Positions 23,259 through 60,865 of a stretch of 64,000 nucleotides of DNA are shown here, one piece after another. Source of the DNA: a bacterium. Its GTDB lineage: Bacteria; Patescibacteriota; Minisyncoccia; Portnoybacterales; UBA2143. How positions within the stretch are numbered: the first letter of the stretch is position 1; each line of letters opens with the position of its first letter. Location: positions 9,507-73,506 of the forward strand of contig JBDRFK010000010.1 of NCBI GenBank assembly GCA_043818835.1. The letters are read 5' to 3'. The translations under genes were made by a program, and so were the position numbers. Below the pieces are notes generated by a model. It made no database searches, was not told the origin of the DNA, and saw nothing but the letters and a program-made list of their open reading frames with translations.

Positions 23259-23366
23259 TGTCATTGCGAGCGAGGCAATCCCGTAAGATAAGTAACTATA
23301 CTACTATTTTACACATTTGCCACGAGATTGCCACGTCGCTCACTGTGTTTGCTCCTCGCAATGACA
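23259..23366. repeat. palindromic mini-element copy A (TGTCATTGCGAGCGAGG...CCTCGCAATGACA)
   Basis: 108-bp imperfect palindrome with 12-bp terminal inverted repeats, next to the tRNA cluster. Confidence 0.8.
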
Positions 23367-23441
23367 AGACAAAGTTAATTTTGTTATTCACGGTTTAGCA
23401 ACTTGTTATTGGCAATAAAATATAGTAAAATATAAACAGAT

Positions 23442-23819
23442 ATGAAGATGTCCGCTTTTTTAATTGGTGTAATATTAACAACATTATTAGCGCTGGTAGC
23501 GTTGATGGGTATTTTGGTATATTTAGAGCCATTAGCCTCGGATGTTTTGATAATGTCTTTATTCTATTTAAGTCTATTTGTCAGCGCTTCTGGGCTGTTA
23601 TCTTTAGTGGGTATTATTGTTCGGCGTATTTCTCGCAAGTCACGAACGACATTGTCTATCAATTGTCAATTATGGGATTCATTTCGTCAAGGTGTTTTTT
23701 TGGCTGTGATTTTGATTGGTTCTTTATTGATGCAAAGTAATGGTTTGGCTTGTTGGTGGAGTTTGTTAGTTTTGGTTGGCATGGTTGGTTTATTGGAATT
23801 TATATTTTTAAGAAGATAA
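23442..23819 (+). CDS. hypothetical polytopic membrane protein
   Basis: 125 aa with 4 predicted TM helices. Confidence 0.5.
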   Translation: MKMSAFLIGVILTTLLALVALMGILVYLEPLASDVLIMSLFYLSLFVSASGLLSLVGIIVRRISRKSRTTLSINCQLWDSFRQGVFLAVILIGSLLMQSNGLACWWSLLVLVGMVGLLEFIFLRR

Positions 23820-23821
23820 TT

Positions 23822-24799
23822 ATGCTGAAAGATATTAAGCAAAATTTCATAAGCGATTTTAAAAAGGCTAAAGATTTAGTCGGTCTTGACGATCTTTATA
23901 ACAAATACCTTGGACGAAAAGGAGAGTTAACTGATTTTTTAAAGTCATTGAAAGATTTATCAAAAGACAAGCGGGCGAAACAAGGTCAAGAAGCAAATTT
24001 GTTAAAAAAAGAAATAGAACAACAGATTGAAGATAAAAAAAACGAATTAGTAACTTCAGGACATAAATCACAAAAAAAAGATTGGATTGATGTGACTGTT
24101 CCTGGTGTCTTGCCTGTGCAAGGCCATTTGCATCCGATTACATTGGTACAACGGCAGATAGAGGATATTTTCAGTTCTATGGGATTTGAAATAGCGTATG
24201 GTCCGGAAGTAGAAAGCGAACATTATAATTTTGATGCCTTAAATATTCCAAAAGACCATCCAGCACGCGATATGTGGGATACTTTTTGGTTGAAGGATAT
24301 TCCAATGCTTTTGAGGACTCATACATCACCGGTACAAGCGCGTTATATGGAAAAGAATAATCCGCCTTTACGAATTATTGTCCCTGGAAAAGTTTTTCGT
24401 CACGAAGCAACAGATGCTTCTCATGATGCTCAGTTTTATCAAGCGGAAGGGTTAATGGTTGGCAAAGAAGTCTCGGTGGCAAATTTCCGAGCAATTATTG
24501 AAGAATTTTTAAGAAGATTTTTTGGAGAGGAAGCGATAATTAGATTACGTCCAAGTTATTTTCCATTTACCGAGCCGAGTTTTGAAATTGATGTTAAACG
24601 TCCAAAAGGTGATTGGTTAGAAATTATGGGCGCGGGCATGGTTCATCCTAATGTTTTTAAGGCGGTTGGCTATGATCAAAAAAAATGGAAGGGTTTTGCT
24701 TTCGGTGTTGGTTTGGATAGGCTAGCAATGTTAAAATACAAGATAGATGATATTCGTTTATTTCATTCAGGGGATTTAAGATTTATAGATCAGTTTTAA
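23822..24799 (+). CDS. pheS: phenylalanyl-tRNA synthetase alpha subunit
   Basis: Class II motifs (FRHEATDASHDAQFYQAEG, GAGMVHPNV). Start taken at MLKDIKQ. Confidence 0.9.
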   Translation: MLKDIKQNFISDFKKAKDLVGLDDLYNKYLGRKGELTDFLKSLKDLSKDKRAKQGQEANLLKKEIEQQIEDKKNELVTSGHKSQKKDWIDVTVPGVLPVQGHLHPITLVQRQIEDIFSSMGFEIAYGPEVESEHYNFDALNIPKDHPARDMWDTFWLKDIPMLLRTHTSPVQARYMEKNNPPLRIIVPGKVFRHEATDASHDAQFYQAEGLMVGKEVSVANFRAIIEEFLRRFFGEEAIIRLRPSYFPFTEPSFEIDVKRPKGDWLEIMGAGMVHPNVFKAVGYDQKKWKGFAFGVGLDRLAMLKYKIDDIRLFHSGDLRFIDQF

Positions 24800-24802
24800 A
24801 AT

Positions 24803-26869
24803 ATGAAAATATCATATAATTGGTTACAAGATTTAATAGAAGAAAAATTACCTAATTCAGAAAAACTGGCTGATTTGTTGTCTATACGTTCTTTTGAAAT
24901 TGAATTAGCTGAAAAGAAAGACAAAGATTATATTCTCGATGTTGATGTGTTGCCAAATCGCGCTCATGATTGTTTTAGTCATCAAGGTATTGCGCGAGAA
25001 GTGGCGGCGATTTTGAAATTAAATTTGAAGACAACAGATTATTCTAAAATAATCAAAAACAAAGATGGACTAGTTAAAAATATTTTGAATGTTGAAATTA
25101 AGAATAAGGATTTATGCCGTCGTTATACAGCATGCGTATTAAATAATGTCAAAATTGAACCATCATCAAAATTAATACAGAGTCGTCTAATTGCTTGTGG
25201 CCTAAAGCCAATTAATAATATTGTTGATATTACTAATTATGTAATGTTGGAAACGGGACAGCCGATGCATGCTTTTGATGCAGATAAAATATCAGAAAAT
25301 AGGTTGGGACAAAAAAATATTGTTGTTCGCAGGGCTCAAAAAGGTGAAAAAATTAAAACTTTGGATGGTAGTGAATATGATTTAGACGATAATATTCTAT
25401 TGATTGCTGATATTAAAAATCCTCTTTGTATTGCTGGAATTAAAGGAGGAACAGTCTCCGAGATTAACAACAATACTAAAAATATAATTTTGGAAGCGGC
25501 TAATTTTGAGCCAACATTTACGAGGCGCGCTTCTCAAAAATTAAAATTGCGTACAGATGCATCATTACGATTTGAACACGATCTTGATCCAAATTTAACA
25601 AAAGAGGCGATTGATATGGCTGTTTATTTAATTGACGATTTAGCTGGTGGAAGTGTTGTCGGCGATATATTTGATGTTTATCCAAAAAAAGTATTGCCAA
25701 AAAAGATTGTTTTGAATTTGAATGATGTTAATTCTTTATTAGGTGTAACTATTTCTATTAAACAGGTATCTGATATTTTGAAGCGATTAGGTTTTAAGTT
25801 CCAAGTTTTAAGTTCCAAGTTTCAAGTTGAGGTTCCGACCAAGAGAATTGATGTTTCTATTCCAGAAGATTTGATTGAAGAAATCGGACGTATTTATGGG
25901 TATGAAAATATTTCCAGTCAATTTCCGAATGCAGCTTTAATACCGCCAACGACCAATGAAGATGTTGTTTATCAAAATAAGATTAGAAATATTTTGATTG
26001 GGTTTGGATTTGACGAAGTGTACAATTATTCTTTTGTTAGTGACGATGCTCTAAAAATGTATAGGAAAAAAATAAACGCAATTGAGGTGGCTAATCCAAT
26101 TAGTCAGGAACAAAAATACTTGCGTCCAAATTTAATCACAAATTTAATCAGGAACATTAAAGATAATGAAAAATATTTTAATGAAATAAAGATTTTTGAA
26201 TTAGGTAGGGTTTTTTGTGGTAATAAATTAAACGTTAAAGAGACTAAGAAAATTGGTGCGGTGATGGTATTGAATAATAAGAAGAATGAGGCGAATAATT
26301 TTTATGAATTAAAGGGTGTTTTGGATTCTTTGTTTAATAAGTTGCGTATTACAGATCAGTGGTATGACGATGTTTTTTCGGATGATATTTTGGTGTCTGA
26401 TTTGTATCATAATGCGCGACGGGCGGAGGTTAAAGTAGGTGATGAATGTTTAGGATGGATTGGTGAGATTAACAATTTGGTTTTATCAAAATTAGGAATA
26501 AAATCTAAAGTAGTTGGTTTTGAATTGTTTTTTGATAAAGTTGCGGAATTGGCAACAGAGGAAAGAATCTATTTGCCACCTTCAAAATATCCTGCTATGG
26601 TAAGAGATATCGCCGTATTGGTAGAGAGAGGAACAAAAGTTGAAGATGTGCTTAATTTGATAAATGTGGTGGGTAGCAGTTTGGTAGTAGATGTAGATTT
26701 GTTTGATATTTACGAGGATGAGCAATCTGGAGATGGGCGTAAAAGTATTGCTTTTCATATAATTTATCAGTCAGATGAGCATAATTTAACAGATAAAGAG
26801 GTTAACGAAGTGCAGAAAAAAATTGTTAAAGTTTTAGAAGACGAAGGCGGTTGGGATGTTCGGAAATAG
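24803..26869 (+). CDS. pheT: phenylalanyl-tRNA synthetase beta subunit
   Basis: 688 aa; B3/4 and B5 domains. Contains an in-frame heptamer array at 25795-25830 (KFQVLSSKFQV). Confidence 0.9.
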   Translation: MKISYNWLQDLIEEKLPNSEKLADLLSIRSFEIELAEKKDKDYILDVDVLPNRAHDCFSHQGIAREVAAILKLNLKTTDYSKIIKNKDGLVKNILNVEIKNKDLCRRYTACVLNNVKIEPSSKLIQSRLIACGLKPINNIVDITNYVMLETGQPMHAFDADKISENRLGQKNIVVRRAQKGEKIKTLDGSEYDLDDNILLIADIKNPLCIAGIKGGTVSEINNNTKNIILEAANFEPTFTRRASQKLKLRTDASLRFEHDLDPNLTKEAIDMAVYLIDDLAGGSVVGDIFDVYPKKVLPKKIVLNLNDVNSLLGVTISIKQVSDILKRLGFKFQVLSSKFQVEVPTKRIDVSIPEDLIEEIGRIYGYENISSQFPNAALIPPTTNEDVVYQNKIRNILIGFGFDEVYNYSFVSDDALKMYRKKINAIEVANPISQEQKYLRPNLITNLIRNIKDNEKYFNEIKIFELGRVFCGNKLNVKETKKIGAVMVLNNKKNEANNFYELKGVLDSLFNKLRITDQWYDDVFSDDILVSDLYHNARRAEVKVGDECLGWIGEINNLVLSKLGIKSKVVGFELFFDKVAELATEERIYLPPSKYPAMVRDIAVLVERGTKVEDVLNLINVVGSSLVVDVDLFDIYEDEQSGDGRKSIAFHIIYQSDEHNLTDKEVNEVQKKIVKVLEDEGGWDVRK

Positions 26870-26887
26870 GTTATTAGTGTATTTTTA

Positions 26888-28863
<1,976 letters not shown>

Positions 28864-29854: not shown

Positions 29855-29862
29855 TATTTACT

Positions 29863-29946
29863 GTCATTGTGAGCGAGCAAAGCGAGCGTGGCAATCTCGT
29901 GTTTTACTGCGAGATTCTTCAGTCGCTTTACTTCTTCAGAATGACA
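29863..29946. repeat. palindromic mini-element copy C (TGTCATTGTGAGCGAGC...CTTCAGAATGACA)
   Basis: 84 bp filling the whole nusG-rplK spacer. Confidence 0.8.
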
Positions 29947-29953
29947 ATACATT

Positions 29954-35395: not shown

Positions 35396-35396
35396 C

Positions 35397-35477
35397 GTCA
35401 TTCCGAGCGAAGCGAGGAATCTCATTAAGCTGGTTATTGTACAGTATGAGATTTCTCGCTTACGGATTGAAATGACA
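35397..35477. repeat. palindromic mini-element copy D (CGTCATTCCGAGCGAAGCGAGGAATC...GAAATGACA)
   Basis: 81 bp filling the glyA-folD spacer. Confidence 0.8.
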
Positions 35478-35487: not shown

Positions 35488-36351
35488 ATGAAAATAATTG
35501 ATGGTAAAAAAATAGCAGATGAAATACTACTTGGCGTAAAAGAAAAAACCAAAGAAAAAAATCTGAAATTGGGTTTGGCTACTATTTTAATAGGCGATGA
35601 TTCTGCCTCGCATCTGTACGTATCATTAAAAGAAAAAGCAGCAAAGGAAATTGGTGTCGGTTTTAAAAAATATATTTTTTCAAATAATGTTGAAGAAAAA
35701 AGAATTATAGATTTAATTATAGAATTAAATATAGATAAGTCGGTAAATGGAATTTTAATTCAAATGCCTTTGCCAAATAATTTAGATGCGGATAAATTAA
35801 TATCTGCGATTGATTTCAAAAAAGATATAGATGGATTATCATCAAATAGCGATTTTGATTCACCATTTATTTTGGCTATTTGGGAAGCGTTGAAAAACAC
35901 AAAAGAAGATTTAAAAAATAAAAAAATATTCGCTTTAGTAAATTCTGGAATTTTTGGAGAAAAGCTCAAAGATTTTTTTAAAACTAAAAAATTGAGTTTG
36001 CGATATAGTGTTATTCCCGCTATACATCAAAGTACAGGACAGGCTTTCGCGAGAATCTGCAGTCTGGATTCCCGCTTTTCCGCCAGAGGGCGGACACGGC
36101 TTGAGAATGACATTACGAGAGAGGATGTCTTAATTACGGCATTGGGCTGTAAAAATTGCATTAAGAGTGATATGATTAAAAAAGGCGTGATTTTGATTGA
36201 CGGTGGTATTTCAAAATTTGATGAAAAAGTTGTCGGTGATGTAGACGCCAATAGCGTTACTCAAAAAGCCGGATGGCTGACACCAGTACCTGGAGGAGTA
36301 GGGCCGATAACTATAGCTATGCTTCTCAAAAACATTACTAAAGATTTATAA
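35488..36351 (+). CDS. folD: methylenetetrahydrofolate dehydrogenase/cyclohydrolase, carrying an in-frame ~30 aa insertion from a palindromic element (36030-36120)
   Basis: FolD-like overall. QSTGQAFARICSLDSRFSARGRTRLENDIT has no counterpart in FolD and is encoded by ...gattcccgcttttccgccagagggcggaca...gagaatgaca. Confidence 0.85.
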   Translation: MKIIDGKKIADEILLGVKEKTKEKNLKLGLATILIGDDSASHLYVSLKEKAAKEIGVGFKKYIFSNNVEEKRIIDLIIELNIDKSVNGILIQMPLPNNLDADKLISAIDFKKDIDGLSSNSDFDSPFILAIWEALKNTKEDLKNKKIFALVNSGIFGEKLKDFFKTKKLSLRYSVIPAIHQSTGQAFARICSLDSRFSARGRTRLENDITREDVLITALGCKNCIKSDMIKKGVILIDGGISKFDEKVVGDVDANSVTQKAGWLTPVPGGVGPITIAMLLKNITKDL

Positions 36352-36412: not shown

Positions 36413-37930
36413 ATGGAATATATACCAACAATAGGATTAGAGATTCATTCAGAATTAAAGACAAAAAGTAAAATGTTTTGTCGGTCTTTGAATAATTCAG
36501 ATGAATCAAAACCAAATACTAATGTTTGTCCTGTTTGTATGGGACATCCAGGGACTTTACCTGTGGCCAATAAGCGAGCAATTAATTTGGTTATTAAGAC
36601 TGGCTTGGCCTTGAATTGTAAGATTAATAAGTTGTCCAAGTTTGATCGCAAAAATTATTTTTATCCAGATTTACCAAAAGGGTATCAAATTTCACAGTAT
36701 GATAAGCCACTGTGTTTTGAGGGATATTTAAATATTATTTCTCCTGTTCTGCGAGATTCTTCGGTCGCTCCACTTCCTCAGAATGACAAATTGAGAAAAA
36801 TACGAATTACTCGCATTCATTTAGAAGAAGATACAGGCAAATTAACTCATCCAAAGGGAGCTGATTATTCATTGGTGGATTATAATCGGGCGGGTGTGCC
36901 ATTGATGGAATTGGTAACTGAACCAGATATTACCTCGGGTAAAGAGGCTCGCGTATTTTGCGAAGAGTTGCAACTTATTTTACGTTATTTAAATGTTTCA
37001 GATGCAAATATGGAAAAGGGACAAATGAGATGTGAAGTTAATATTTCTATGGCGCCTGAAGGAATGCGCGGAACAAAGGTGGAGATTAAAAATTTAAATT
37101 CTTTTAGGGTCGTTGAAAAATCTATTGATTATGAGATTAAAAGGCAGATAGAAATATTAAATGATAGTAAAAAAATTATTCAAGAAACAAGGGGTTGGGA
37201 TGATAATAAACAAATAACTTTTTCACAGAGAATAAAAGAAGGAGCTAAGGATTATCGTTATTTTCCAGATCCTGATTTACCGACTTTAAGCATTAGTCAG
37301 GATGAAATAGATAATCTTAAAAGAGATATTACAGAATTACCACAATCACGACGTGAAAGATTTTTACAAGAATACAAAATACCCGAACAAGATATCAAAG
37401 TTTTGGTATCTAATAAATATTTGGCTAACTTTTTTGAACAGGCTGTTTCAGAATTAAAAACTTGGTTGAAAATAAAGAAGGTTGATATTTTGCCAACTGA
37501 CGGACAATCATTAATCAAGTTAACTGCTAATTACATTTTGACCGAATTGCAAAAATTATTATTAGTTTCAAAAAAAGGAATGGATGATTGTCGTGTTAGT
37601 CCAGAAAATTTTGCTGAGTTTATTACCTTAATAAAACAGGGAGAAATCTCTAGTTCTGCTGCGCAAGCTGTTTTAAAAGAAATGTTTGAAACGGGAGCTG
37701 ACCCATCACATATTATTGAAGAAAAAGGATTAAAACAAGTTAGTGATCAAGGAGCATTAGAAACAATTGTTGATCAAGTTATAAAAGACAATCCAGATTC
37801 TGTTAAAGATTTTAAGTCGGGGAAAGAAAATGCTTTACAGTTTTTAATTGGTAGAACCATGGCTGTTAGTAAGGGACAGGCTAATCCTCAGGTGGTTGGC
37901 GAGATTTTAAGAAAGAAATTGACTGACTAA
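36413..37930 (+). CDS. gatB: Asp/Glu-tRNA amidotransferase subunit B, carrying an in-frame half-element at 36745-36788
   Basis: GatB N-terminus (IGLEIHSELKTKSKMFC) and RIHLEEDTGK motif. Inserted segment ctgcgagattcttcggtcgctccacttcctcagaatgaca is near-identical to the right half of copy C. Confidence 0.9.
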   Translation: MEYIPTIGLEIHSELKTKSKMFCRSLNNSDESKPNTNVCPVCMGHPGTLPVANKRAINLVIKTGLALNCKINKLSKFDRKNYFYPDLPKGYQISQYDKPLCFEGYLNIISPVLRDSSVAPLPQNDKLRKIRITRIHLEEDTGKLTHPKGADYSLVDYNRAGVPLMELVTEPDITSGKEARVFCEELQLILRYLNVSDANMEKGQMRCEVNISMAPEGMRGTKVEIKNLNSFRVVEKSIDYEIKRQIEILNDSKKIIQETRGWDDNKQITFSQRIKEGAKDYRYFPDPDLPTLSISQDEIDNLKRDITELPQSRRERFLQEYKIPEQDIKVLVSNKYLANFFEQAVSELKTWLKIKKVDILPTDGQSLIKLTANYILTELQKLLLVSKKGMDDCRVSPENFAEFITLIKQGEISSSAAQAVLKEMFETGADPSHIIEEKGLKQVSDQGALETIVDQVIKDNPDSVKDFKSGKENALQFLIGRTMAVSKGQANPQVVGEILRKKLTD

Positions 37931-42343: not shown

Positions 42344-42345
42344 TT

Positions 42346-43691: not shown

Positions 43692-43699
43692 TAAAGCAG

Positions 43700-50649: not shown

Positions 50650-51789
50650 ATGACGATTGGAATAGATATCAGAGTTTTAGCCAAGGGGACAAGAACGGGG
50701 GTAGAGGAATATACGATAAATCTTTTATCTCATCTTTTGCCTTTAGATAAAACTGTAAAATACAAATTATTTTATAATGCTTTTCATAAACCAATCTTAG
50801 ATTACGATTGGTTAAATTTGGATAATGTGGAATTATGCAATTTTATAATTCCTAATCGCGCTTTCTTTGGAATGACACGATATTTAAATCAACCTAAGGT
50901 TGATAAATTATTGAAGGGTGTTGATGTATATTTCAATCCACATTTTTTTAATGCGCCAGTTTCAAAAGAATGTCGCAAGGTGGTAACTTTTCATGATTTG
51001 TCTTTCAAACGTTATCAATACTATTTTTCAAAAAGAAAAAGATTATGGCAAATTTTTTTAATGAATGCTAAACGCGAAGCACAGACGGCTGATAAAATTA
51101 TTGCTGTTTCAGAATCAACTAAAAATGATTTAGTAAATCTATGTAAAATTAATTCAGATAAGATACAAGTAATTTATTCAGGAGTTGGTTTACAAAGGTT
51201 AGGTCTTTGTAAAAATAAAGGCTTAACCTTTGTAAAAAATAAATATAATTTGCCTGATGATTATGTTTTATACTTTGGCACCATTGAACCTCGTAAAAAT
51301 ATTATCGGCTTGATAAGGGCTTTTGAATTATTAAAAACCAAATATAATTTTCCAAATCTTAAATTGGTTTTAGCGGGATCAATGGGGTGGCTTTATGGTG
51401 ATGTTATTAGAACAGCAAAAAAATCAACATATAGTCAAGATATTTTTTTTACTGGTTTTGTTGAGGAAACAGATAAACCATATTTATATAAATTAGCTGA
51501 TTTATTTGTTTATCCGAGCTTTTTTGAAGGTTTTGGTTTTCCGCCATTGGAAGCAATGGCTTGTGGCGCGCCGGTAATTACATCAAATAATTCTTCTTTG
51601 CCCGAAGTTGTGGGTGATGCCGCTTTGATGGTAGATGCTTATAGATATGGCGATATGGCGTGGGGAATGAATGAGATTTTAACTAACCAACAGATTTATG
51701 ACAGAATGATTAAAAAGGGCTTTGAACAGGTAAAAAAGTTTTCGTGGAAAAGGTGCGCCGAGAAAACATTAAAAACTTTATGCGAATAG
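50650..51789 (+). CDS. family 4 glycosyltransferase
   Basis: [23 protein letters not shown]. Confidence 0.8.
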
Positions 51790-52979
51790 GAATTGATGCT
51801 CGATTTTACGGGCCTAAAAAACAAAAAGGACTTGGTCGTTATCTACAGGAATTAATTACCGAGTTAGAAAAAATAGATACAAATAATGAGTTTGTTATTT
51901 TTTTGCGTTGTGAAAATTGGAACGACTATCAACCAATAAACAATAATTTCAGAAAAGTTTTGGCAGATTATCGTTGGTACACTTTTGCCGAACAAATTAT
52001 GATGCCGATTAAAATTTGGCGAGAGGATATAGATTTAATGCATTTTCCTCATTTTAACATTCCGATTTTTTGCCCAACTAAATTTGTAGTTACAATTCAT
52101 GACTTGATTTTAAAACATTTTCCAACACGACGCGCTTCAACGCTTGGGCCGATAATGTATAGGATTAAAAACTGGGGATATGAGATTACAATTTGGTTGG
52201 CGGTCAGGAGGTCGCAAAAAATCATTGCTGTTTCAGAATTTACCAAACGAGATATTTTGAATAACTTTAATGTTGCTGATAACAAAATTAAAGTTATTTA
52301 TGAGGGGGTGTTATCTCCTGTCATTCCCACTCCCTTTGTCATTCCCGCTAAAGCGGGAATCCAGAATGTAGATTTACGCTTTTCCGCCAAAGGGCGGACA
52401 TGGCGCGGGAATGACAAAGAAGAAGGTAGGAGTAACGAAATATACTTGCTTTATGTAGGCAATGCATATCCTCACAAAAATTTAGAAAGATTGATTTTGT
52501 CGTTTGATAAATTATCAGGTGATTATCCTGATTTAAAATTAGTTTTAGTTGGCGAATTAGATTATTTTTACAAACGGCTTCAGGAATATGTTTCAGGTTT
52601 TAATCCTAAGACCACAAATAATATAATTTTTACTGATCTCGTGTCGGACAATGAATTAAATAATTTATACAAAAATGCTTCTTTATATGTTTTTCCTTCA
52701 GAATACGAAGGGTTTGGGTTACCGCCCTTAGAGGCGATGTCTTGTGGCTTGCCAGTAGTTTCTTCTAATGCCAGTTGTTTGCCAGAAATTTTAGGTAATT
52801 CGGCAATTTATTTTAATCCGGTCAGTGTTGATGATATGGTCGACAAAATTAAAAAAGTTTTTAATAATAGAGCTATAAGAAAGGATTTAATCGAGAAAGG
52901 ATATCAGCAAATTAAAAAATATAATTGGCAGAAAATGACAAAAGCAATAAGGAGGATCTATGCCGAAGAGAAGATATGA
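51780..52979 (+). CDS. family 4 glycosyltransferase with in-frame palindromic-element insertion (52319-52415)
   Basis: [24 protein letters not shown]. Inserted [33 protein letters not shown] is encoded by tgtcattccc...cgcttttccgccaaagggcggaca...gggaatgaca. Confidence 0.8.
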
Positions 52980-53300: not shown

Positions 53301-56300
53301 ATGCCGAGCTATTCCGTAAAAAATAAAAAAAGGCTTGTCTTTTCGGCGTTGTTTGATGTCCGTCCAACAACACAAGTTGGTGATTTAGATGTGGTAAAAA
53401 TAAGACAATCTAAACGAATTTTGGATTTACGTGGTCTTAAAAATGCGCAAGAGGAAGAATTGCGACGTAAGGCGATAAGAATAGATTTAATTGAAGAACC
53501 AATAGATCCAAACAAAGGATTAAGCGCAGGTGATCAAATAATATTAGATCGCTTAGAAGCTGATATGGGCACAGATGAAACTGTGCAAAGAGTGTTTCAA
53601 TTATCTAAGATAGAAGAATCAATAAATTCGCAGACACAACCAGCGCCAACACAAATACAAGAAGTTGCAAAAAAAACCTTTATTACACCTAAGCCCGAGG
53701 CAAATATAAAAAAAGAAATTCTTAAAGCAAAACCAAAGAAGCTAACATATCAAATTTCAGAAGAAGAATTAAATAATTTAGATAATGAGTTTGGATTTGA
53801 AACAAATAACAAAAGTACTATCAATAGGCCAGTTTTGGTTAATAGTGAAGAAGATGAGATTGTTTCGTCAGCTGTGGCTCCTCGCAATGACAGTGAAGGT
53901 GAGGGTGATAACGGAGAAAAGAATGCAGTAAAGGAATATTCTAACATACCTGCTATTGAACCAATTAGGAGTCCAATTTTAGTCAGTGATCAGTGTATAG
54001 AAAGATTGCCAACAAAAGAAGAAGTTCTGGCTGATTTAGAAAAAATAGATAATTTAGATATAATACTGAACGATGATCAAAATGTTTTAATAGAAGATAA
54101 TAATGGGAAAGACTTTGTTGTTAGTGCTATTGTCGGCGACCAAAGCAGGATAAAGATAATTAAAAAGCAATTGGAATCAAAAAATATTTCTGATTTAGAA
54201 AAGATTTATTTTCAGGAAGATGGTAGAGATAGTGTATTGATGGATAAAAATATCTTTCAGAAACCGTCTCCAAGAATTAATAATGATCAGGATGAGGTAT
54301 TTGAAGAAGAACCACAGAGTAAATTACAATGGAAAACTCAGTTGGCTAACCATAGTCAATCTTATTGGCCACGATCTTTGACAGGCTTTATAATTACGGG
54401 CATATTAGTGGCTTTAATAATTCCTGGGGCAACGCTGTTAAGTCGAGGATTGGCGATAAAAAGCGAGGTTGTTAATAACGGCGTGGCAGCTATCGGGAAT
54501 TTAATAGCAGCCAAACATTCGGTTGAAGAAACTAATTGGGAGGTGGCTGAGAGAGATTTTGGTTTGGCGCATCAAAACTTTATTCAAGCTAATTCCGAAA
54601 TTGGTAAATTAGGTAAAATAACATTGGGTATTTTGGAACATATGCCGGGCGGTTCTTTAGTTTCGTCTGGTAATCATCTGGTTGGTGTCGGAGAAAATCT
54701 GGCAGAGGCTGGTCAGAAATTATCTTCAGCGGTTGGTTTATTTTCTTTTGACACATGGCTAAGTGAAATTAATATTTCTGAAGAGGACGACAAAGATAAC
54801 AAGACATTAGCAGTAAAAAATAATTCTCTTACTGATATTTTGAGTTCTGGTTATGGTAATTTGGAAGATGCTTTGGAAAATATTCATTTGGCTAATGATG
54901 AATTAAATAAGGTAGATGTTAATTCTTTACCTGTAGAAATGCAAGGAGAAGTGCTTTTATTGAAAGATAAATTGCCGGTTGTGGAAGAGTTATTGAACGG
55001 CGCGGTATCATATTCAAAAGTTCTATTAAAAATTATGGGGAATGACAATCCGCGTCAATATCTATTGTTGTTTCAGAACAACGGCGAGGCGCGAGCGACG
55101 GGTGGCTTTATCGGTACGTATGGGTTATTAAAAATTTATCAAGGTGAGATAAGGCAGCTTTTTATTGATGGTGTTTTTAATGCTGATGGGCAATTGCGAG
55201 AGAAAATTATTCCACCAAAACCAATACAAAAAATTAGCACGGCATGGTCAATGCATGATGCTAACTGGTTTGCCGATTTTCCAACTTCTGCAGAAACAGT
55301 GTCTTGGTTTTATGAAAAAACTGGTGGGCCGACAGTTGATGGTGTGCTCAGTTTTACGCCAATAGTTATAGAGCGTTTACTGGCTATAACTGGCGAGATT
55401 GCTATGCCCGAATATGATGTAATTTTAACGGCTGATAATTTTGTAGAGTTGATACAATACAAAGTAGAAATAGATTATGACAAAGAACTTAATCGTCCTA
55501 AAAAGATTTTGGCTGATTTTGCTCCTAAATTTATTGAAAGATTGAATCAATTGCCTAATGATAAACAAAAAGAAGTAATCAAGGTAATTATAGACTGTTT
55601 AGTCGAAAAGCATATAATGTTTTATTTTAAAGATAGTGATTTAGAAGAATTTACTGTTAATGAGGGTTGGGGTGGACAAGTTTTAGATGCTGATAAAGAT
55701 TATCTTAGTGTTATATCATCCAATATTAATGGGTTTAAGACTGATAGAGTAATTAAGGAGACAATAAATCATCAGGCAGAAATTCAAGATGATGGTTCTA
55801 TAATTGATACGGTGCAAATTACACGTAAGCACGAGGGTGGTGATTTGGAATATGATTGGTGGAATAGGGTTAATGCAAACTATCTAAGAGTTTATGTTCC
55901 TCTTGGCAGCGAACTAATTTCTGCTGAAGGTCATAGTTTAGAATCTTATAATTCACCGATTGACTATGAGGAAAATAATTTCAAAACATATCCATCACTG
56001 AGTCTGATAGAGGATACGCAAAAAACAGATAAAAAGACTGGGACACAAATATTTACTGAAAGTGGCAAAACAGTGTTTGCTAACTGGGCGTATGTTAGTC
56101 CTGGGGAAACTGTGGTTTTGACGTATAAATACAGATTGCCATTTAAAATTAACTTGACCAAATCGGCTGATAGTTATAGTTTGATAGCGCAGAAACAATC
56201 TGGAAGTTTAGGAAGTAATTTTAAATATTCTTTACGGTATCCAGCTGATTGGAATGTATCTTGGCAATATCCGAACGATTTAACGTTATCATCAGGAATT

Positions 56301-56366: not shown

Positions 56367-57965
56367 ATGATAAAAAAACTTCTTAATAATAAAATAAGCA
56401 CTATTACTATGGCCGCTGTCGTTTTGGGAGCGGCTTCTTTTTTGAGTCGTCTTATTGGTCTTTTTAGAGATAGAATTCTATTGAATATGTTTGGTACGGG
56501 TAGAGAGTTGGATATATATTATGCCGCTTTTCGTATTCCAGATTTTGTTTACGCTTTTTTTATCTTAGGTGTTATCTCGGCAGGCTTTGTTCCTGTGTTC
56601 ATTCATTATCTTCAAAAAGATAAAGAAAAATCGTGGTATTTGGCTAATAATATTTTGAATCTAATTGCTATTGTTTTAATAGTGGTTTGTTTAGTTTTAG
56701 TATTTTTTGTTCCTTATATTGTTCACTTGGTGGCACCCGGGTTTGAAAAAGAGAGCGCAGATATGACAATCAAATTGGCTCGGATTATGTTTTTAAGTCC
56801 GATATTTTTAGGCATCAGCGCTGTTTTCAGTGGGATTTTACAAAGCTTCCGTCGGTTTCTTATATATTCATTAGCGCCGATTATGTATAATTTGGGAATA
56901 ATTTTTGGCGCATTATTTTTGGTAAAATATTTTGGTTTAATTGGTTTGGCTTACGGCGTCGTTCTGGGTGCTTTTTGTCATATGATGATTCAAATTCCGA
57001 CAGCAATTTTTTGTGGGTATAAATGGCGTCCAATATTAAACTTAAAATTTGATGGATTGAAAAGAGTATTAAAGTTAATGCCACCACGGTTTTTGAGTTT
57101 GATTTTTTATCAAATTACTTTCTGGGTTTTTACGGCTATTGCGTCGTTATTGGCAGTGGGGAGCATAGTAATTTATAATACGGCTTATAATATTTTTAGT
57201 TTTCCATTAGGTATATTTGCCTTATCTTATGCAGTGGCGGCTTTTCCGAAATTGTCGGAAAGCGCACAAAAAAAAGATAAGCGAGAATATGTTCGGACTT
57301 TTTCGGCTACCGCACGACAAATATTGTTCTTTATTATTCCAGTTGCGGTTTTGTTTATTATCTTAAGATTACAAATAATTCAGGTGCTATTTTCTGGAGG
57401 TAAGTTTAGTTGGCAAGATACAATGCTGATTGGACAGACTTTGATGTATTTTTGTATTGGTCTTTTTGCAGAAGGTTTGGCTTTGTTTCTGTTGCGTGGG
57501 TTTTTTGCATGGGAAGACACAATAACGCCCTTTGTATTGGCGTTTATTACTATGGTAATTCGTATAGCCAGTGGTTGGTATCTGACCAGATTTTTTGGGG
57601 TTGCTGGTTTGTCTTTAGGATTTGCTATTGGTAGTATTTGTTTTTTTGTGTTGCTTTTAATTTGTTTAAGAAAAAAGGTGGGATTATTGGATGGTAAAAA
57701 TATTTTTAATTCAGCAATTAGAATTGCTATTGCAACATTATTTGCGGGTGGCGTGTCATATTTTATATTAAATCTTTTGACTATAAAAATTCCGGCTATT
57801 GTTCCAATAATGATGCTTTTGAAAGGTGGTATCGCAGGCATTTTAGGTGTTATTATCTATTTTGTTTTTGCTTGGATTTTAAAAATTCCAGAATTTTATT
57901 TATTTGTTTCCTCTTTATCAAGAAAATTGTCTATAAAAAAACTTCCGCCACGACAGGAGATATAG
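56367..57965 (+). CDS. murJ: lipid II flippase MurJ
   Basis: 532 aa, 14 TM helices; N-terminus ASFLSRLIGLFRDRILLNMFGTG...YYAAFRIPDF is typical of MviN/MurJ. Confidence 0.9.
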   Translation: MIKKLLNNKISTITMAAVVLGAASFLSRLIGLFRDRILLNMFGTGRELDIYYAAFRIPDFVYAFFILGVISAGFVPVFIHYLQKDKEKSWYLANNILNLIAIVLIVVCLVLVFFVPYIVHLVAPGFEKESADMTIKLARIMFLSPIFLGISAVFSGILQSFRRFLIYSLAPIMYNLGIIFGALFLVKYFGLIGLAYGVVLGAFCHMMIQIPTAIFCGYKWRPILNLKFDGLKRVLKLMPPRFLSLIFYQITFWVFTAIASLLAVGSIVIYNTAYNIFSFPLGIFALSYAVAAFPKLSESAQKKDKREYVRTFSATARQILFFIIPVAVLFIILRLQIIQVLFSGGKFSWQDTMLIGQTLMYFCIGLFAEGLALFLLRGFFAWEDTITPFVLAFITMVIRIASGWYLTRFFGVAGLSLGFAIGSICFFVLLLICLRKKVGLLDGKNIFNSAIRIAIATLFAGGVSYFILNLLTIKIPAIVPIMMLLKGGIAGILGVIIYFVFAWILKIPEFYLFVSSLSRKLSIKKLPPRQEI

Positions 57966-57997
57966 AGTCCTCGTAGAGTACTCCACGAGGACTCTAT
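57962..57997. repeat. 36-bp palindrome ATAGAGTCCTCGTAGAGTACTCCACGAGGACTCTAT (second copy of the element at 13226)
   Basis: Differs from the 13226 copy by a single central T/C. Overlaps the murJ stop codon. Confidence 0.8.
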
Positions 57998-58053
57998 TAT
58001 GCATAGACTAATTATGCCATCTACGCTATTATTTCGAGAAAGAATTTTTACTA

Positions 58054-58152
58054 TGTCATCCTGAGGCAGTAGCCGAAGGATCTCGTGGGAAAAACATAAT
58101 CGTTGTTTGTCTACGGGATTGCCGAGATCCCTACTGGTCACTCGCAATGACA
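58054..58152. repeat. palindromic mini-element copy J (TGTCATCCTGAGGCAG...CACTCGCAATGACA)
   Basis: 99 bp; internal gggattgccgagatccc is shared with copy A. Confidence 0.8.
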
Positions 58153-58234
58153 GAAGAAAGAGAGTTTTTTGGTTCACGTTGTGTGATTTAATTTATAACG
58201 AAATCGCCGCGGGCTTTGCCCGCGGCGAGATGTT

Positions 58235-59014
58235 TTACATATCAAGATTATTACATATATCTCCCAATAAGATATTTTGATTGTTAAGAAGAGTTATTAT
58301 ATCACATAGATTGTTCAAAATTTCTTGATGCTTGAAAAACATCCTGGCAAGGTTTGACAAAGTATTTCTGAAATTCGCTACTTTTGATATATCAGAAATC
58401 ATAAACTTGTTATTCCCAATTTCAGATAATTTTAATGAATTATCTTTTTTATTTTCTGAAAACACAAACAAACAAGTGAATAATTTTGTTAAATTATCTA
58501 AGAACTTTGGTTGAATTTCTTTTTCGTGATCCAAGTCTTTATGGAGTAATATTCTTAGGAGCATGTCTATGCCGGCCTTATCTTCTTGAAATATTCCTTT
58601 GTCAAAAACAGGATAAATAGTAGTATTAATCTTTAAGGTAATCAGATCAAAGTGTCTATTAAAACCTCCTTTAATGATTGATTGTTCTTTAAAATGAAAT
58701 TCACCTAAAAAGGAATTATTGTCTATAAGAATACTATCAATATTATCACTACCATTATAACTAAGAAAATTTACGAATGTTTTTTCTAACATATTTCTTA
58801 TAGATAGTTTAGTTGCAATTTCAACTTCTGCTGGTATGTTTTTATGTTTTATCCAGTTAAAAATTTCTGTTAATTGTTTGAAACTTTTCAAATCTTCTCC
58901 GTCTAACAATAAAATATTTTTGTAAAATATTTTATCTATAATTACATTGCTTTCATTACCGACAATTTTAATAGCCATTCTATCCTCCTTATATATAAAA
59001 ATGTTAAGTTGCAA
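58235..59014 (-). CDS. hypothetical protein (259 aa, no recognisable domain)
   Basis: ORF only; AT-rich and island-like. Flanked by repeat elements. Confidence 0.45.
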   Translation of the reverse strand: MQLNIFIYKEDRMAIKIVGNESNVIIDKIFYKNILLLDGEDLKSFKQLTEIFNWIKHKNIPAEVEIATKLSIRNMLEKTFVNFLSYNGSDNIDSILIDNNSFLGEFHFKEQSIIKGGFNRHFDLITLKINTTIYPVFDKGIFQEDKAGIDMLLRILLHKDLDHEKEIQPKFLDNLTKLFTCLFVFSENKKDNSLKLSEIGNNKFMISDISKVANFRNTLSNLARMFFKHQEILNNLCDIITLLNNQNILLGDICNNLDM

Positions 59015-59050
59015 TTTATTTTAGAATAAAGTATGATTAGGTATATGTCA

Positions 59051-60865
59051 ATGAAAAATATTAGGAATTTTTGTATCATTTCTCATATTGATCACGGGAA
59101 GTCAACTTTGGCTGACCGGCTTTTGGAATTGACTGGGACTGTTGAGAAGAGAAAAATGCAAAATCAAGTTTTGGATATGATGGATTTGGAAAGAGAGAAG
59201 GGGATTACGATTAAACTACAGCCAGCAAGGATGGAGTATCAACTGCCACGTCATTCTGAGGGAGCGAAGCGACCGAAGAATCTTGCGCTTATTCGGCGGG
59301 ATTCTTCACTTTTAGCTCAGAATGACGGACAACAGGATGACAAATTCATTCTCAATTTAATTGATACACCGGGTCATGTTGATTTTACTTACGAAGTTTC
59401 AAGAAGTTTAGCAGCGGTGGAGGGCGCTGTTTTATTGGTGGATGCAACACAAGGAATACAGGCGCAGACATTGGCAAATCTGCATTTAGCGCAGAAGCAG
59501 GGTTTGGTGATTATTCCTGTGATCAACAAAATTGACGCGCCTGCGGCGCGCCCAGATGATATTGCTTTAGAAGTTGCGCAATTATTGGATATTGAACCAG
59601 ACGGGATTATTAGAATATCAGCAAAAAATGGAATAAATATAGAACAAGTTGTTGAGGCAATAGTTGAAAAAATTCCAGCGCCAGAAGGTGATGAGAATCA
59701 ACCATTGCAAGCCCTAATTTTTGATTCTAATTATGATTCTTATCAAGGTGTCATTGCTCATGTTCGTATTAAAAACGGGCAAGTAAAAAAAGACCAGAAA
59801 ATTTTTATGAAAGCGTCGCAGGCTACTTCTGGTATTATTGGCATAGGAATTTTTAAACCACGACCTCAAGAGAAAGAAAATTTAACAGCGGGTGAGATTG
59901 GATATATTGCCACAGGATTAAAGGACATCAATATTTGTCGGGTGGGTGATACGATTACTTTGAATAATAATATAAAAGCATTGTCTGGATATCAAGAATC
60001 AAAACCGATGGTCTATGCTAGTTTTTTTCCTATTGATGGTGATGATTTTGATTTGTTGCATGATGCTTTAGGTAAACTGAAAATGAATGATGCGTCTTTG
60101 GATTTTGAATTAGAATCTTCTGATGCTTTGGGGCGTGGTTTTCGTTGTGGATTTTTAGGCTTGTTACATTTAGAAATTATCGGCGAGCGACTACGTCGTG
60201 AATATGATTTAAATTTAGTTATAACAGCGCCTTCGGTATATTATCGTTATACTGATAAATCTAAAACAGGTATGGAAGAGCCGTGGGTAAAATTGGAAGT
60301 TGTTTCTTCTAATGAATATTTAGGAGCAGTAATGAAATTATTAACAGAAGCGGAAGGAGAATATGTTAATACGGAATATTTAAATCCAGAAAAAGTATTA
60401 CTGACCTATAAAGCGCCATTGCGCGAAATTATGACTGATTTTTATGATAAATTAAAAAGCGCTACATCGGGCTATGCTTCTTTAGCTTATCAATTAGACA
60501 ATTATCGTGAAGCAGATTTGGTTAAGCTGGATATTGTAGTGGCTGGGGAAAAGGTAGAAGCTTTTTCCAGATTTGTGGCGCGCAATAAATCTTATCGTGA
60601 AGCAAAATTATTAGTCGAAAAACTAAAAGATTTAATTCCTTCTCATCAATTCAGTATTCCAATTCAAGGTATGGTGGGCAGTAAGGTGATTGCTCGTGAG
60701 ACAATTAAAGCGTTTAGAAAAGATGTTATTGCTGGTCTTTATGGTGGTGACTATACACGCAAAAGAAAACAATTAGAAAAGCAGAAAAAAGGTAAGAAAC
60801 GATTAAAACAATTCGGCAAAGTTTCTATTCCGCAAGAAGTATTTTTAAAGGCTTTAAAAAAATAA
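59051..60865 (+). CDS. lepA: elongation factor 4 (LepA) with a 26-codon in-frame palindromic-element insertion (59249-59326) in the G domain
   Basis: MKNIRNFCIISHIDHGKST, DTPGHVDF and the LepA C-terminal domain. PRHSEGAKRPKNLALIRRDSSLLAQND lies between G1 and G3 and has no counterpart in E. coli LepA. Confidence 0.9.
   Translation: MKNIRNFCIISHIDHGKSTLADRLLELTGTVEKRKMQNQVLDMMDLEREKGITIKLQPARMEYQLPRHSEGAKRPKNLALIRRDSSLLAQNDGQQDDKFILNLIDTPGHVDFTYEVSRSLAAVEGAVLLVDATQGIQAQTLANLHLAQKQGLVIIPVINKIDAPAARPDDIALEVAQLLDIEPDGIIRISAKNGINIEQVVEAIVEKIPAPEGDENQPLQALIFDSNYDSYQGVIAHVRIKNGQVKKDQKIFMKASQATSGIIGIGIFKPRPQEKENLTAGEIGYIATGLKDINICRVGDTITLNNNIKALSGYQESKPMVYASFFPIDGDDFDLLHDALGKLKMNDASLDFELESSDALGRGFRCGFLGLLHLEIIGERLRREYDLNLVITAPSVYYRYTDKSKTGMEEPWVKLEVVSSNEYLGAVMKLLTEAEGEYVNTEYLNPEKVLLTYKAPLREIMTDFYDKLKSATSGYASLAYQLDNYREADLVKLDIVVAGEKVEAFSRFVARNKSYREAKLLVEKLKDLIPSHQFSIPIQGMVGSKVIARETIKAFRKDVIAGLYGGDYTRKRKQLEKQKKGKKRLKQFGKVSIPQEVFLKALKK

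Follow-up and report, generated by a model that had tools for sequence, protein, structure and literature searches.

Recently inserted hairpin elements related to the target motifs of the GIY-YIG nuclease Ssn in a Patescibacteria genome

The 64-kb stretch of DNA analyzed here (the window) belongs to a small candidate-phyla-radiation (CPR; Patescibacteria) genome and contains about 14 recently inserted hairpin elements of 30–110 bp. The 14 loci comprise 25 hairpin units and account for 1.6% of the window, with a GC content of 48% (vs. 34%). They are confined to the region from 23.2 to 59.4 kb, where the density is about one per 2.8 kb; the remaining 27 kb of the window contain zero copies. All 12 copies listed in a first-pass annotation of the sequence were found at or near the positions given there, and the genes that it named (pheT, gyrB, nusG, rplK, glyA, folD, gatB, miaB, tpiA, pgk, and lepA) were identified correctly. 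The coordinates were refined for the copies in folD (36010–36113), gatB (a 51 nt insert, 36738–36788), and miaB (a 63 nt insert, 39464–39526). A solo unit at 53855–53892 and a single hairpin at 47182–47212 were added, and the copy at 47394–47477 turned out to fall within the RNase P RNA gene. The copies are listed below, with the strand where one is assigned; unit types A and B are defined further on.

23259–23366: E1, full doublet of two inverted type-A units (GCAAT variant) in the spacer between tRNA-Met and a 125-aa ORF
26888–26934: E2, compact type-B palindrome, GTCATTCCCG-TTTTCA-CGGGAATGAC, with an extra half end, in the pheT/gyrB spacer
29862–29946: E3, full type-A doublet occupying the whole nusG/rplK spacer
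35396–35477: E4, full type-A doublet occupying the whole glyA/folD spacer
36010–36113: E5, degenerate type-B doublet, in frame in folD, that contains TCCGCC...GGCGGA as a nested hairpin
36738–36788, minus strand: E6, solo type-A unit, in-frame insert in gatB
39464–39526, minus strand: E7, type-B unit with a truncated duplicate, in-frame insert in miaB (a minus-strand gene)
43622–43693: E8, full type-B doublet occupying the whole tpiA/pgk spacer
47141–47662, minus strand: RNase P RNA gene (bacterial class A; Rfam RF00010, 195 bits, E 1e-61), host of E9 and E9b
47182–47212, plus strand: E9b, single unit GTCATTATCCGGTTTGACTGGATAATCTAG in the RNase P RNA gene
47394–47477: E9, full type-A doublet at the tip of helix P12 of the RNase P RNA
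52319–52416: E10, type-B doublet that carries a nested hairpin and an additional, truncated left end, in frame within the gene for a GT4 glycosyltransferase
53855–53892, minus strand: E13, solo type-A unit, in frame in the gene for a 1019-aa DUF4012 protein
58054–58152: E11, full type-A doublet between murJ and a 259-aa ORF (convergent)
59249–59327: E12, full type-A doublet in frame in lepA (EF4)

In the 64-kb window, 13 occurrences of the end motif YGTCATYSYGAG were counted (0.7 expected), YGTCATYCYGAG with at most one mismatch yields 13 matches (0.71 expected, and never more than 4 in any of 100 shuffles), and a second end motif, GTCATTCC, has 10 matches in the window (1.4 expected). Internal blocks are shared as well, with 78% identity between 36049–36112 and 52353–52416 and 90% identity between 29907–29947 and 36749–36789. 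Thus, the end motifs and common internal blocks proposed in the first pass are real. Folding, one of the checks suggested there, yielded long hairpins for the full copies, with DNA dG values from −11.5 to −26.8 kcal/mol and z scores from −2.1 to −6.6. Examples are E1, which carries TGTCATTGCGAG at both ends (dG −20.6, z −4.7), E4 (dG −18.8, z −5.6), E9 (dG −22.3), and E10 (dG −26.8, z −6.6). Neither a target-site duplication nor a defined target sequence was found at any copy.

The basic unit is oriented: (Y)GTC comes first, followed by a hairpin whose stem is bounded by AT and AT, and then by C. A full element consists of two such units in inverted orientation that flank a short spacer and fold together as a single long hairpin, and therefore its termini read TGTCAT...ATGACA. 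Type-B units have the inner end ATCCAG, and type-A units, which make up 14 of the 25, have the inner end ATCTCG and a GCGAAGC-type loop.

Six loci (E1, E2, E3, E6, E7, and E8) are represented by empty sites in relatives. The closest relatives compared have GyrB identities of 82–84%, and the 32 kb sampled from them contain no units at all. The spacer harboring E1 is 263 bp long, vs. 93 bp, without a unit, for the orthologous spacer in L002, whereas the spacers of E2 and E3 (59 bp and 99 bp) correspond to only 1–2 bp and 4–9 bp, respectively, in L001 and L002; at the site of E8, tpiA and pgk of L002 overlap. E6 and E7 are missing from the L002 genes gatB (484 aa there vs. 505 aa in the window) and miaB (330 aa vs. 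351 aa). Because these six sites are empty, the elements are insertions and not ancestral sequence, the alternative that had been raised in the first pass.

Six copies are located in frame within genes, namely, folD, gatB, miaB, lepA, the glycosyltransferase gene, and the DUF4012 gene. E5 is translated as VIPAIHQSTGQAFARICSLDSRFSARGRTRLENDI, and the alignment of FolD to solved structures is interrupted across it; E13, with an end-motif match at 53881–53892, is translated as EIVSSAVAPRNDS, and E10 is translated in frame into 32 residues. E12 contributes about 27 extra residues (RHSEGAKRPKNLALIRRDSSLLAQNDG) between the equivalents of positions 70 and 73 of Thermus thermophilus EF4 (5imq_B). The RNase P RNA gene, which hosts two copies, has a length of 522 nt vs. 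367 positions of the Rfam model. The program cmscan assigned the 84 nt of E9 to the P12 loop as inserted sequence, and in the RNA fold the helix P12 is lengthened by coaxial extension (dG −42.5, z −4.4). E9b, likewise inserted with respect to the Rfam model, lies in the RNA directly on the 5' side of the conserved ACAGAA..CGGCUUA segment. In essential proteins, the insertions were tolerated at beta-turns or loops, and in RNase P RNA at a peripheral helix.

Judged by its sequence, the unit is the "Ssn-related motif" (SRM) or NTS hairpin of a family of GIY-YIG ssDNA nucleases (PMC11893778). In both Neisseria and Wolbachia, Ssn, a nuclease of about 95 aa, binds this motif in single-stranded form and cuts a few nt 5' of GTC (Chenal et al., Nat Commun 2025, PMC11893778). 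As in the published SRM/NTS motifs (which include dRS3) associated with SsnA, GTC is followed by a hairpin and C, in type B then by CCAG. Two of the window units come within 2–3 mismatches of the Neisseria NTS consensus (0 expected): 52337–52364 in E10, which differs at 2 positions, and E7, with 3 mismatches; E2 has the dRS3 form ATTCCC-N8-GGGAAT. Seven window units (E ≤ 0.05, best 4e-8) were recovered by R1, a covariance model whose training set consisted solely of ssn-flanking units from other organisms; they are located in E10 (4.4e-8), E8 (2.6e-6 and 0.042), E7 (1.2e-3), E2 (1.3e-3), E5 (36064–36112, 2e-3), and E9b (3.6e-3). The unit E9b is similar to an ssn-flanking unit of L099, and the right arm of E8 equals ssn-flanking units of L076 and L078 except for the first base (A for G). 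Type-A units score weakly with the type-B model (E 0.5–8), and the published degenerate SRM pattern has 0 matches in the window.

The ssn loci of other organisms reveal how such units are arranged. In the Patescibacteria locus L059 and the Doudnabacteria locus L064, inverted units bracket the ssn ORF exactly, and in Azospirillum, ssn has an 82-bp doublet on each side, within the suf operon. Among 80 ssn loci, an upstream unit is present in 43, a downstream unit in 45, and both in 28, and inverted pairs enclosing ssn are also found in many phyla besides Patescibacteria. GTCAT...ATC is invariant in all 87 distinct units from ssn neighborhoods, and the window units have it too. Ssn is present in Saccharibacteria, Paceibacterota, Parcubacteria, Kerfeldbacteria, Uhrbacteria, and others; the CPR protein P0169 is 57% identical to SsnA of N. 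gonorrhoeae, with the catalytic Y, Y, and E invariant. Both the protein family (44–57% identity to SsnA) and the NTS-ssn-NTS architecture are the same as in the published systems. In L169, L078, and L136, cassettes and gene-less doublets occur side by side. No transposase, Ssn homologue, or other GIY-YIG gene was found in the 64-kb window, and the contigs of the two closest relatives contain no ssn or other GIY-YIG gene. Because an inverted pair encloses ssn elsewhere, the window copies are best read as gene-less derivatives.

Type B goes with the classical Ssn clade, and type A goes with a second Ssn clade that was found in this analysis via a metagenome scan. The pattern 'type-A unit + N10-40 + codons for (F/Y)VYI' was fitted by 29 metagenome loci, about 27 of which encode a full Ssn-like protein, a link between type A and ssn2 that rests on a pattern already demanding four Ssn-like N-terminal codons. 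In many of these loci, an inverted type-A unit, not demanded by the pattern, follows downstream. The type-A-linked proteins are 44–51% identical to SsnA, and L176 is a Patescibacteria example. Identity between type-A units of the window and units of metagenome ssn2 loci reaches 93%: the right arm of E3 shares 33/37 positions with the unit 3' of the ssn2 gene in L150, the left unit of E4 27/29 with a unit of L161, and E6 and the left unit of E12 each 34/37 with a unit of L169. Type-A-rich phage contigs contain no ssn in 509 kb. The two subtypes noted in the first pass correspond to two different Ssn clades, a match that had been missed there.

The elements described here differ from the published SRM/NTS in their Patescibacteria/CPR host (CPR names were not found in the text of PMC11893778), in the 14 of 25 units that are type A, fall outside the published pattern, and are paired with the second Ssn clade, and in being mostly gene-less inverted doublets with no ssn in the window. 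The present analysis also shows insertion polymorphism as well as copies in frame in essential genes and within RNase P RNA; in the text of the published description, the word 'intragenic' was not found (PMC11893778).

Motif identity, the architecture of cassettes and doublets, and recent insertion were established in this analysis. Taken as a whole, the SRM-hairpin elements are probably gene-less, MITE-like derivatives of SRM-ssn-SRM cassettes that would be mobilized by Ssn. The nuclease, encoded elsewhere in the genome or formerly present, would nick ssDNA just outside each terminus, and such nicks might initiate copying of the elements or their movement. GIY-YIG nucleases hydrolyze DNA and are not known to catalyze strand transfer. 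The first-pass description of a single family of non-autonomous, inserted palindromes, both intergenic and in frame, holds, as does its statement that no transposase is present in the window. Its assignment to generic MITE/REP elements does not, since the unit is, by its sequence, the GTC-hairpin-C of the SRM/NTS (PMC11893778), and the 'parent' would be the SRM-ssn-SRM cassette and not a transposase-bearing insertion sequence, with no target-site duplication visible.

Alternatively, the units could be host-maintained Ssn target sites that tune natural transformation and are spread by recombination, not by selfish transposition, which we consider unlikely. In its favor, CPR bacteria commonly carry competence genes, L064 has a ComEC-type gene at a distance of about 3 kb from its ssn gene, and the units cluster near particular genes both here (23–59 kb only) and in Neisseria. 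Moreover, modulation of transformation, by cleavage after ssDNA uptake, is the only role of NTS/SsnA demonstrated experimentally, in Neisseria, whereas mobility is a hypothesis of Chenal et al. (PMC11893778). However, maintenance by the host leaves unexplained the de novo appearance at at least six sites empty in close relatives, the presence of in-frame copies within essential genes and of copies in RNase P RNA, and the gene-less doublets that share the ends of the cassette. It is compatible with mobilization of cassette derivatives by Ssn, as an additional consequence.

It is quite improbable that the elements are REP/REPIN sequences moved as ssDNA by a RAYT (Y1 HUH, IS200/IS605-like), with one enzyme per genome. 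REPs have a GTAG-type 5' motif, whereas the units carry GTCAT...ATC, and in more than 100 loci the gene between the inverted units is the GIY-YIG gene ssn, a hydrolytic nuclease and not a Y1 HUH transposase such as RAYT. No Y1 transposase was found among the window ORFs scanned. Nevertheless, the likeness is considerable: both systems feature inverted doublets of short hairpins (here, long hairpins of 70–110 bp), a presumed ssDNA substrate, no target-site duplication, intergenic clustering without a transposase nearby, and an enzyme gene that is present once and has its own repeats on either side. The parallel to REPs is also noted in the Ssn paper itself (PMC11893778).

Classical MITEs, that is, internally deleted insertion sequences recognized by a DDE transposase via terminal inverted repeats, are very unlikely. 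Like Correia/NEMIS, ERIC, and BOX, the elements are short, have many copies and terminal inverted repeats (TGTCAT...ATGACA) with no transposase nearby, are sometimes intragenic, and may affect transcripts. However, a target-site duplication is visible at none of the copies, there is no DDE-transposase parent, and the longer elements with identical ends contain only the 95-aa GIY-YIG gene. Furthermore, the ends are oriented hairpins that, by analogy, would be recognized as ssDNA, and they have covarying stems (a partly circular count, from a unit set pre-selected for at least six perfect pairs) and not a fixed transposase-binding sequence. That they are ancestral functional RNAs or terminator hairpins, conserved and not inserted, can hardly be entertained: as strong hairpins at gene ends they could terminate transcription or stabilize mRNA, but the orthologous sites are empty in relatives with 82–84% GyrB identity, copies reside within coding regions and RNase P RNA, and no Rfam family matches the elements.

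The combination of intergenic and in-frame insertion is shared with the Rickettsia palindromic elements (RPEs), reportedly described by Ogata et al. in 2000. RPEs are palindromic, non-autonomous elements of about 100–150 bp in a reduced genome, inserted in intergenic DNA and in frame in unrelated housekeeping genes, the proteins tolerating the insertions (PMC10969869). In contrast to the elements described here, RPEs are Rickettsia families with conserved encoded peptides, a comparison made by description and not by sequence. A link between RPEs and SRMs is possible because Rickettsia is among the genomes with more than 300 SRMs (Chenal et al., PMC11893778). The peptide VIPAKAGIQ, which the first pass had attributed to the repeats, is indeed the read-through of a type-B unit, and it also forms the N-terminal tail of the database Ssn protein P0184.

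The hairpin elements of the window are doublets of Ssn-related motifs (SRMs), a kind of repeat that has been described only recently. The Ssn/NTS system was described by Chenal et al. (2025, PMC11893778), to whose paper a full-text search with GTCATTCCCGC pointed: the Neisseria Transformation Sequence (NTS, CGTCATTCCCGCGMAVGCGGGAATCYRG) contains the older dRS3 repeat, and the wider class is called SRMs. The SRM hairpins number in the hundreds and lie, in addition, on both sides of ssnA, the gene for a GIY-YIG protein of 94 aa with this single domain (cd10448). Binding by SsnA is restricted to the single-stranded form of the hairpin, and the cut falls a few nucleotides upstream; cleavage relies on the three nucleotides 5' of the palindrome, and binding depends most on the C directly 3' of it, the identity of the loop not being essential. 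Whether NTS-ssn-NTS is a mobile element was left open by the authors (PMC11893778). The positions critical for SsnA (GTC on the 5' side and C on the 3' side) are kept exactly in the window units. All 25 units or unit fragments begin with (Y)GTCAT, save one GCCAT and one ATCAT, and the complete ones end in ...AT-C. Full-text searches with unit sequences and peptides returned the Ssn paper as the only relevant one for type-B units (inner end ATCCAG) and nothing for type-A units (inner end ATCTCG), and a literature search on palindromic repeats of the candidate phyla radiation (CPR) returned only CRISPR/TIGR papers. An Rfam scan of the window, with gathering and E-value thresholds, matched only the RNase P RNA and tRNAs, and no family covered the elements.

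Reference Ssn genes and their flanks were recovered from N. gonorrhoeae and Azospirillum, followed by 120 Ssn relatives and, among GTDB species representatives, 80 genomic loci. From the 80 ssn loci, 87 distinct units were drawn, and in this set, to which only units with at least 6 perfect pairs had been admitted, GTCAT and ATC never vary and the stem covaries. A covariance model (R1) built from these ssn-flanking units, with no window sequence in the training, matched seven window units at E ≤ 0.05, all of type B:

52337-52364, E 4e-8
43665-43693, E 3e-6
39464-39491, E ~1e-3
26891-26915, E ~1e-3
36064-36112, E ~1e-3
47182-47212, E ~1e-3
43622-43648, E 0.04

The type-A units of the window obtained weak R1 scores (E 0.5-8). 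Two window units match the NTS with at most three mismatches, versus 0 expected, with 2 differences from the consensus at 52337-52364 and 3 at 39464-39491 (minus strand). The dRS3 form ATTCCC-N8-GGGAAT has two exact instances (26892-26911 and 52341-52360), and the stems differ in the other window units. The published SRM pattern, HGTCWYN(0-2)YYVSBRHN(0-5)WNVSBRGN(0-2)RNCYNB, has no match in the window; near-canonical units miss it by single positions (for example, GCTAAAGC), and type A lies outside it. Most of the window elements are in a motif variant that published searches miss.

The units share a common plan, consisting of (Y)GTC, a hairpin with a stem that opens with AT and closes with AT, C, and three further bases. 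Type-B units such as TGTCATTCCCGCTAAAGCGGGAATCCAG combine a perfect 8-bp stem with the end ATCCAG; in type-A units such as CGTCATTCTGAGGGAGCGAAGCGACCGAAGAATCTTG, the stem is 5 bp long (ATTCT/AGAAT), there are two G-A/A-G juxtapositions, the cap is GCGAAGC-like, and the end is ATCTCG or ATCCCG. In a full element, two units flank a short spacer; because the right unit is inverted relative to the left one, the element ends read TGTCAT...ATGACA. Altogether, the units and fragments occupy 14 loci confined to 23.2-59.4 kb, with nine full doublets (E1, E3, E4, E5, E8, E9, E10, E11 and E12), a compact palindrome with one stem common to both units (E2), and the solo units E6, E7, E13 and E9b. They sum to 1,041 bp, that is, 1.6% of the window, with a GC content of 48% versus 34% window-wide. 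The end motif YGTCATYCYGAG occurs 13 times with at most one mismatch, versus 0.71 expected and a maximum of 4 in 100 shuffles. Every copy listed in the first-pass annotation is present, and the loci 53855-53892 and 47182-47212, which it had missed, are added here. Its coordinates could be refined: the doublet in folD (36010-36113) is complete, though degenerate, and the copies in gatB and miaB are inserts of 51 and 63 nt. The full copies fold into long hairpins that are much more stable than shuffled sequence (z down to -6.6). A minus-strand segment near the start of a GT4 glycosyltransferase gene (50845-50877, GTCATTCCAAAGAAAGCGCGATTAGGAATTATAA, R1 E = 1.2) may be a decayed unit and was left out of the copy count. 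At three places in the window (52319-52345, 39492-39526 and 26915-26934, in E10, E7 and E2), a truncated unit (GTCATTCCC...) is followed after 6-12 nt by a complete unit, and the same arrangement is found beside ssn at eight of the compared loci (L068, L070, L075, L083, L085, L087, L105 and L109). This arrangement may be a trace of the cleavage of an existing unit or of an insertion into it, and its recurrence, in many ssn flanks too, hints that units already in place may themselves serve as insertion targets.

The window, with a GC content of ~34%, a strongly positive GC skew and most genes on the plus strand, carries housekeeping genes: a ribosomal protein block, dnaE, ligA, pheST, gyrB, nusG-rplK, thyA, glyA, folD, gatB, miaA/B, tpiA, pgk, recJ, glycosyltransferases, murJ, lepA and prfB, together with 5 tRNAs and one RNase P RNA gene. 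The next relatives of its GyrB (26929-28863) are proteins from Patescibacteria and Candidatus Portnoybacteria (71-84% identity). PheT (24803-26869) begins at about position 157 of the bacterial profile, that is, without the N-terminal domain, which is likewise missing in the two closest relatives (671-690 aa). These relatives, the contigs L001 and L002 (GyrB 84 and 82% identical, respectively), have a conserved gene order and served for comparison. The pheT-gyrB spacer is 59 bp in the window versus 1-2 bp in the relatives, and the nusG-rplK spacer is 99 bp versus 4-9 bp. A 68-bp spacer separates tpiA and pgk, which overlap in L002, and 263 bp lie between tRNA-Met and the adjacent ORF, versus 93 bp and no unit in L002. 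Segments of 17 residues in GatB and 21 residues in MiaB are absent from the L002 proteins, and no units were found in 32 kb of L001 and L002. Thus, six sites are empty in close relatives, and the copies are insertions rather than ancestral sequence, as the first-pass annotation had claimed. Together with the ends that the doublets have in common with ssn cassettes (SRM-ssn-SRM), these sites are clean comparative evidence of recent insertion, and the question of mobility is therefore directly testable. No target motif is evident in the flanks; they are T-rich 5' of both ends, which is to be expected at a genomic GC content of 34%.

Six copies preserve the reading frame and contain no stop codon in it, and two further insertions lie in the RNase P RNA gene:

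FolD, insert translated as VIPAIHQSTGQAFARICSLDSRFSARGRTRLENDI
GatB, insert translated as SPVLRDSSVAPLPQNDK
MiaB, insert translated as FSSAIPASHSAIPAKARIQSK
GT4 glycosyltransferase, insert with an in-frame translation of 32 residues
DUF4012 protein, insert translated as EIVSSAVAPRNDS
LepA, insert translated as RHSEGAKRPKNLALIRRDSSLLAQNDG
47141-47662, minus strand, RNase P RNA gene

The LepA insert takes the place of a two-residue connection (between positions 70 and 73 of T. thermophilus EF4), and those in GatB and MiaB are located at short gaps within sequence that aligns well. Essential proteins (LepA, GatB, MiaB and FolD) can accommodate these hairpins in frame, and RNase P RNA can take them up as well. 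The copy at 47394-47477 was already on record, and its placement inside the RNase P RNA gene is added here. According to cmscan, the 84-nt doublet is an insertion in the P12 loop, an assignment made from the Rfam consensus and the exact ends of the element, and a 31-nt single unit is a second insertion, directly 5' of the conserved ACAGAA..CGGCUUA segment. In an RNA fold, the doublet forms a long extension stacked on P12 (dG -42.5, z -4.4). For CPR RNase P RNAs, "large extensions of helices" have been reported as frequent, with no cause given (Lui et al., 2021, PMC8172020), and the elements are a concrete candidate source for such extended helices of CPR structural RNAs (PMC8172020). Relative to the Rfam model, the same RNase P RNA has one more helix extension, an AT-rich palindrome of 44 nt (47515-47558, minus strand) with no GTCAT...ATC signature. 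On the Sphingopyxis indica plasmid pMC4, an NTS-like unit lies within the annotated ileS coding sequence (L004, 6001-6033), and in-frame SRM insertions therefore occur in Proteobacteria, too.

The Ssn family is large, with 21,796 representatives (50% clustering, E ≤ 1e-3). Neither the window nor L001 or L002 contains an ssn gene by tblastn with three GIY-YIG queries and a motif scan. Within the phylum of the host, ssn is associated with units at L059, L064, L123, L176 and other loci. Inverted type-B units exactly bracket the ssn ORF in a Patescibacteria MAG (L059, GCA_035290705.1), in the order TGTCATCCCCGCGCAGGCGGGGATCCAG, 10 nt, ssn, CTGGATCCCCGCCTGTGCGGGGATGACA, and likewise in a Doudnabacteria MAG (L064, GCA_019659055.1). 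Across the 80 ssn loci, a unit is present within 90 nt upstream in 43, an inverted unit downstream in 45, and both in 28. CPR bacteria account for 16 of the 80 loci (Saccharibacteria, Paceibacterota, Parcubacteria, Kerfeldbacteria, Uhrbacteria, Moraniibacteriota, Berkelbacteria and Doudnabacteria), a new host group for the Ssn/NTS system. A CPR Ssn protein (P0169) is 57% identical to gonococcal SsnA, and the equivalents of Y6, Y17 and E64 are invariant. N-terminal tails on database Ssn proteins (one of 21 residues; CHSRESGNPE) are read-through of the upstream unit, which also explains the peptide VIPAKAGIQ noted in the first-pass annotation; the units are a candidate source of the junk ORFs and peptides that repeats contribute to metagenome annotation. 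Beside ssn, there are gene-less doublets as well (34 in 370 kb of ssn neighbourhoods), and one from Saccharibacteria (L078) has a right arm identical to that of window element E8 apart from the first base. On the Azospirillum lipoferum 4B plasmid AZO_p3 (L006, 1080-1586), an insertion separates sufB from sufC in an otherwise intact suf operon; it consists of ssn flanked on either side by an inverted doublet of 82 bp. Accordingly, the window elements are the short version of the cassette, without the gene.

Type A is a second motif class with its own Ssn clade, missed by current SRM searches and abundant in phage contigs. Among the 80 classical-Ssn loci, only two stray type-A units were found. 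A scan of JGI metagenomes for a short-form type-A unit followed, after 10-40 nt, by codons for (F/Y)VYI matched 29 loci, about 27 of which encode a complete Ssn-like protein of 92-117 aa belonging to a distinct clade (signature ...TLYxGVTNDLxRRVYEHK...GFTxxY...REKQIKGWxRxKK....; 44-51% identity to SsnA). An inverted type-A unit, not demanded by the search pattern, lies 3' of many of these genes, and several of the proteins end in the tail RDSSLRSE, which is the unit read through. One protein annotated as Patescibacteria (P0423, L176, GC 36%) has an inverted type-A unit downstream, and a further locus (L169) contains a cassette and two gene-less type-A doublets inside 10 kb. The type-A units of the window are up to 93% identical to those of the second-clade (ssn2) loci (E4L 27/29, E9L 35/39, E3R 33/37, and E12L and E6R 34/37 each). 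Exact type-A units are present in 51 IMG/VR contigs (GC 38-64%); no ssn was found in the 509 kb of these contigs, and a scan for inverted type-A inner ends at a spacing of 285-345 nt yielded only two chance matches. Three related phage contigs (L052, L031 and L021), whose ORFs include capsid-, portal- and tail-like ones, have a type-A unit in nearly every spacer, all co-oriented with the genes (for example, L052 1950-12921). An ssn2 cassette with type-A units (L177 6279-6717, GCA_040961665.1, GC 51%) has archaeal-looking neighbours (Peptidase_M54 archaemetzincin, KTI12 and PHP); the Ssn/type-A system may extend across domains.

Ssn enzymes bind such hairpins as single-stranded DNA and nick a few nucleotides 5' of GTC (PMC11893778). 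In a doublet or cassette, the 5' end of each strand has one unit oriented for recognition, so that two nicks would be expected just outside the two termini, as an element-defining nuclease would make them. For the doublets of the window, an Ssn encoded elsewhere in this genome would presumably act in trans. GIY-YIG enzymes are hydrolytic nucleases for which no strand transfer is known; cut-and-paste by the nuclease alone is therefore less plausible than a route coupled to replication or repair.

A host-beneficial control of transformation, as in Neisseria, is compatible with mobile Ssn-related doublets but leaves the new insertions unexplained. The doublet architecture is common to REPINs, the REP doublets tied to a Y1 (HUH) RAYT gene; however, every locus examined has a GIY-YIG gene between the units, and the window motif is GTCAT, not the conserved GTAG-type 5' motif. 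The first-pass annotation had classified the elements as MITE-like, and inverted termini, one mark of a classical MITE derived from a transposase-encoding insertion sequence, are indeed present. Yet no target-site duplication is visible flanking any window copy, and there is no transposase parent, the longer relatives carrying only a GIY-YIG gene; the earlier interpretation was right in spirit and is refined here to Ssn-related doublets. That the hairpins are ancestral functional structures is contradicted by the empty sites in the relatives. Insertion in frame is a behaviour that the elements have in common with Rickettsia palindromic elements; an RPE-like unit used as a query had no match in a plasmid collection.

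A joint reading of all these observations, which we offer tentatively and consider rather unlikely to hold in full, would be that Ssn nucleases and GTC-hairpin-C sites form a pan-bacterial class of mobile elements without a DDE or HUH transposase that reaches phages and possibly archaea. Gene-less doublets would be actively colonising ultra-reduced CPR genomes, adding peptides to essential enzymes and lengthening RNase P RNA helices, with at least two co-evolving nuclease/motif specificities (ATCCAG and ATCTCG), and NTS/dRS3 and perhaps Rickettsia palindromic elements would belong to one superfamily.

The window also contains two copies of an unrelated 36-nt perfect palindrome, ATAGAGTCCTCGTAGAGTACTCTACGAGGACTCTAT (13225-13261 and 57962-57998, 97% complementarity), one upstream of dnaE and the other overlapping the murJ stop codon, beside E11.
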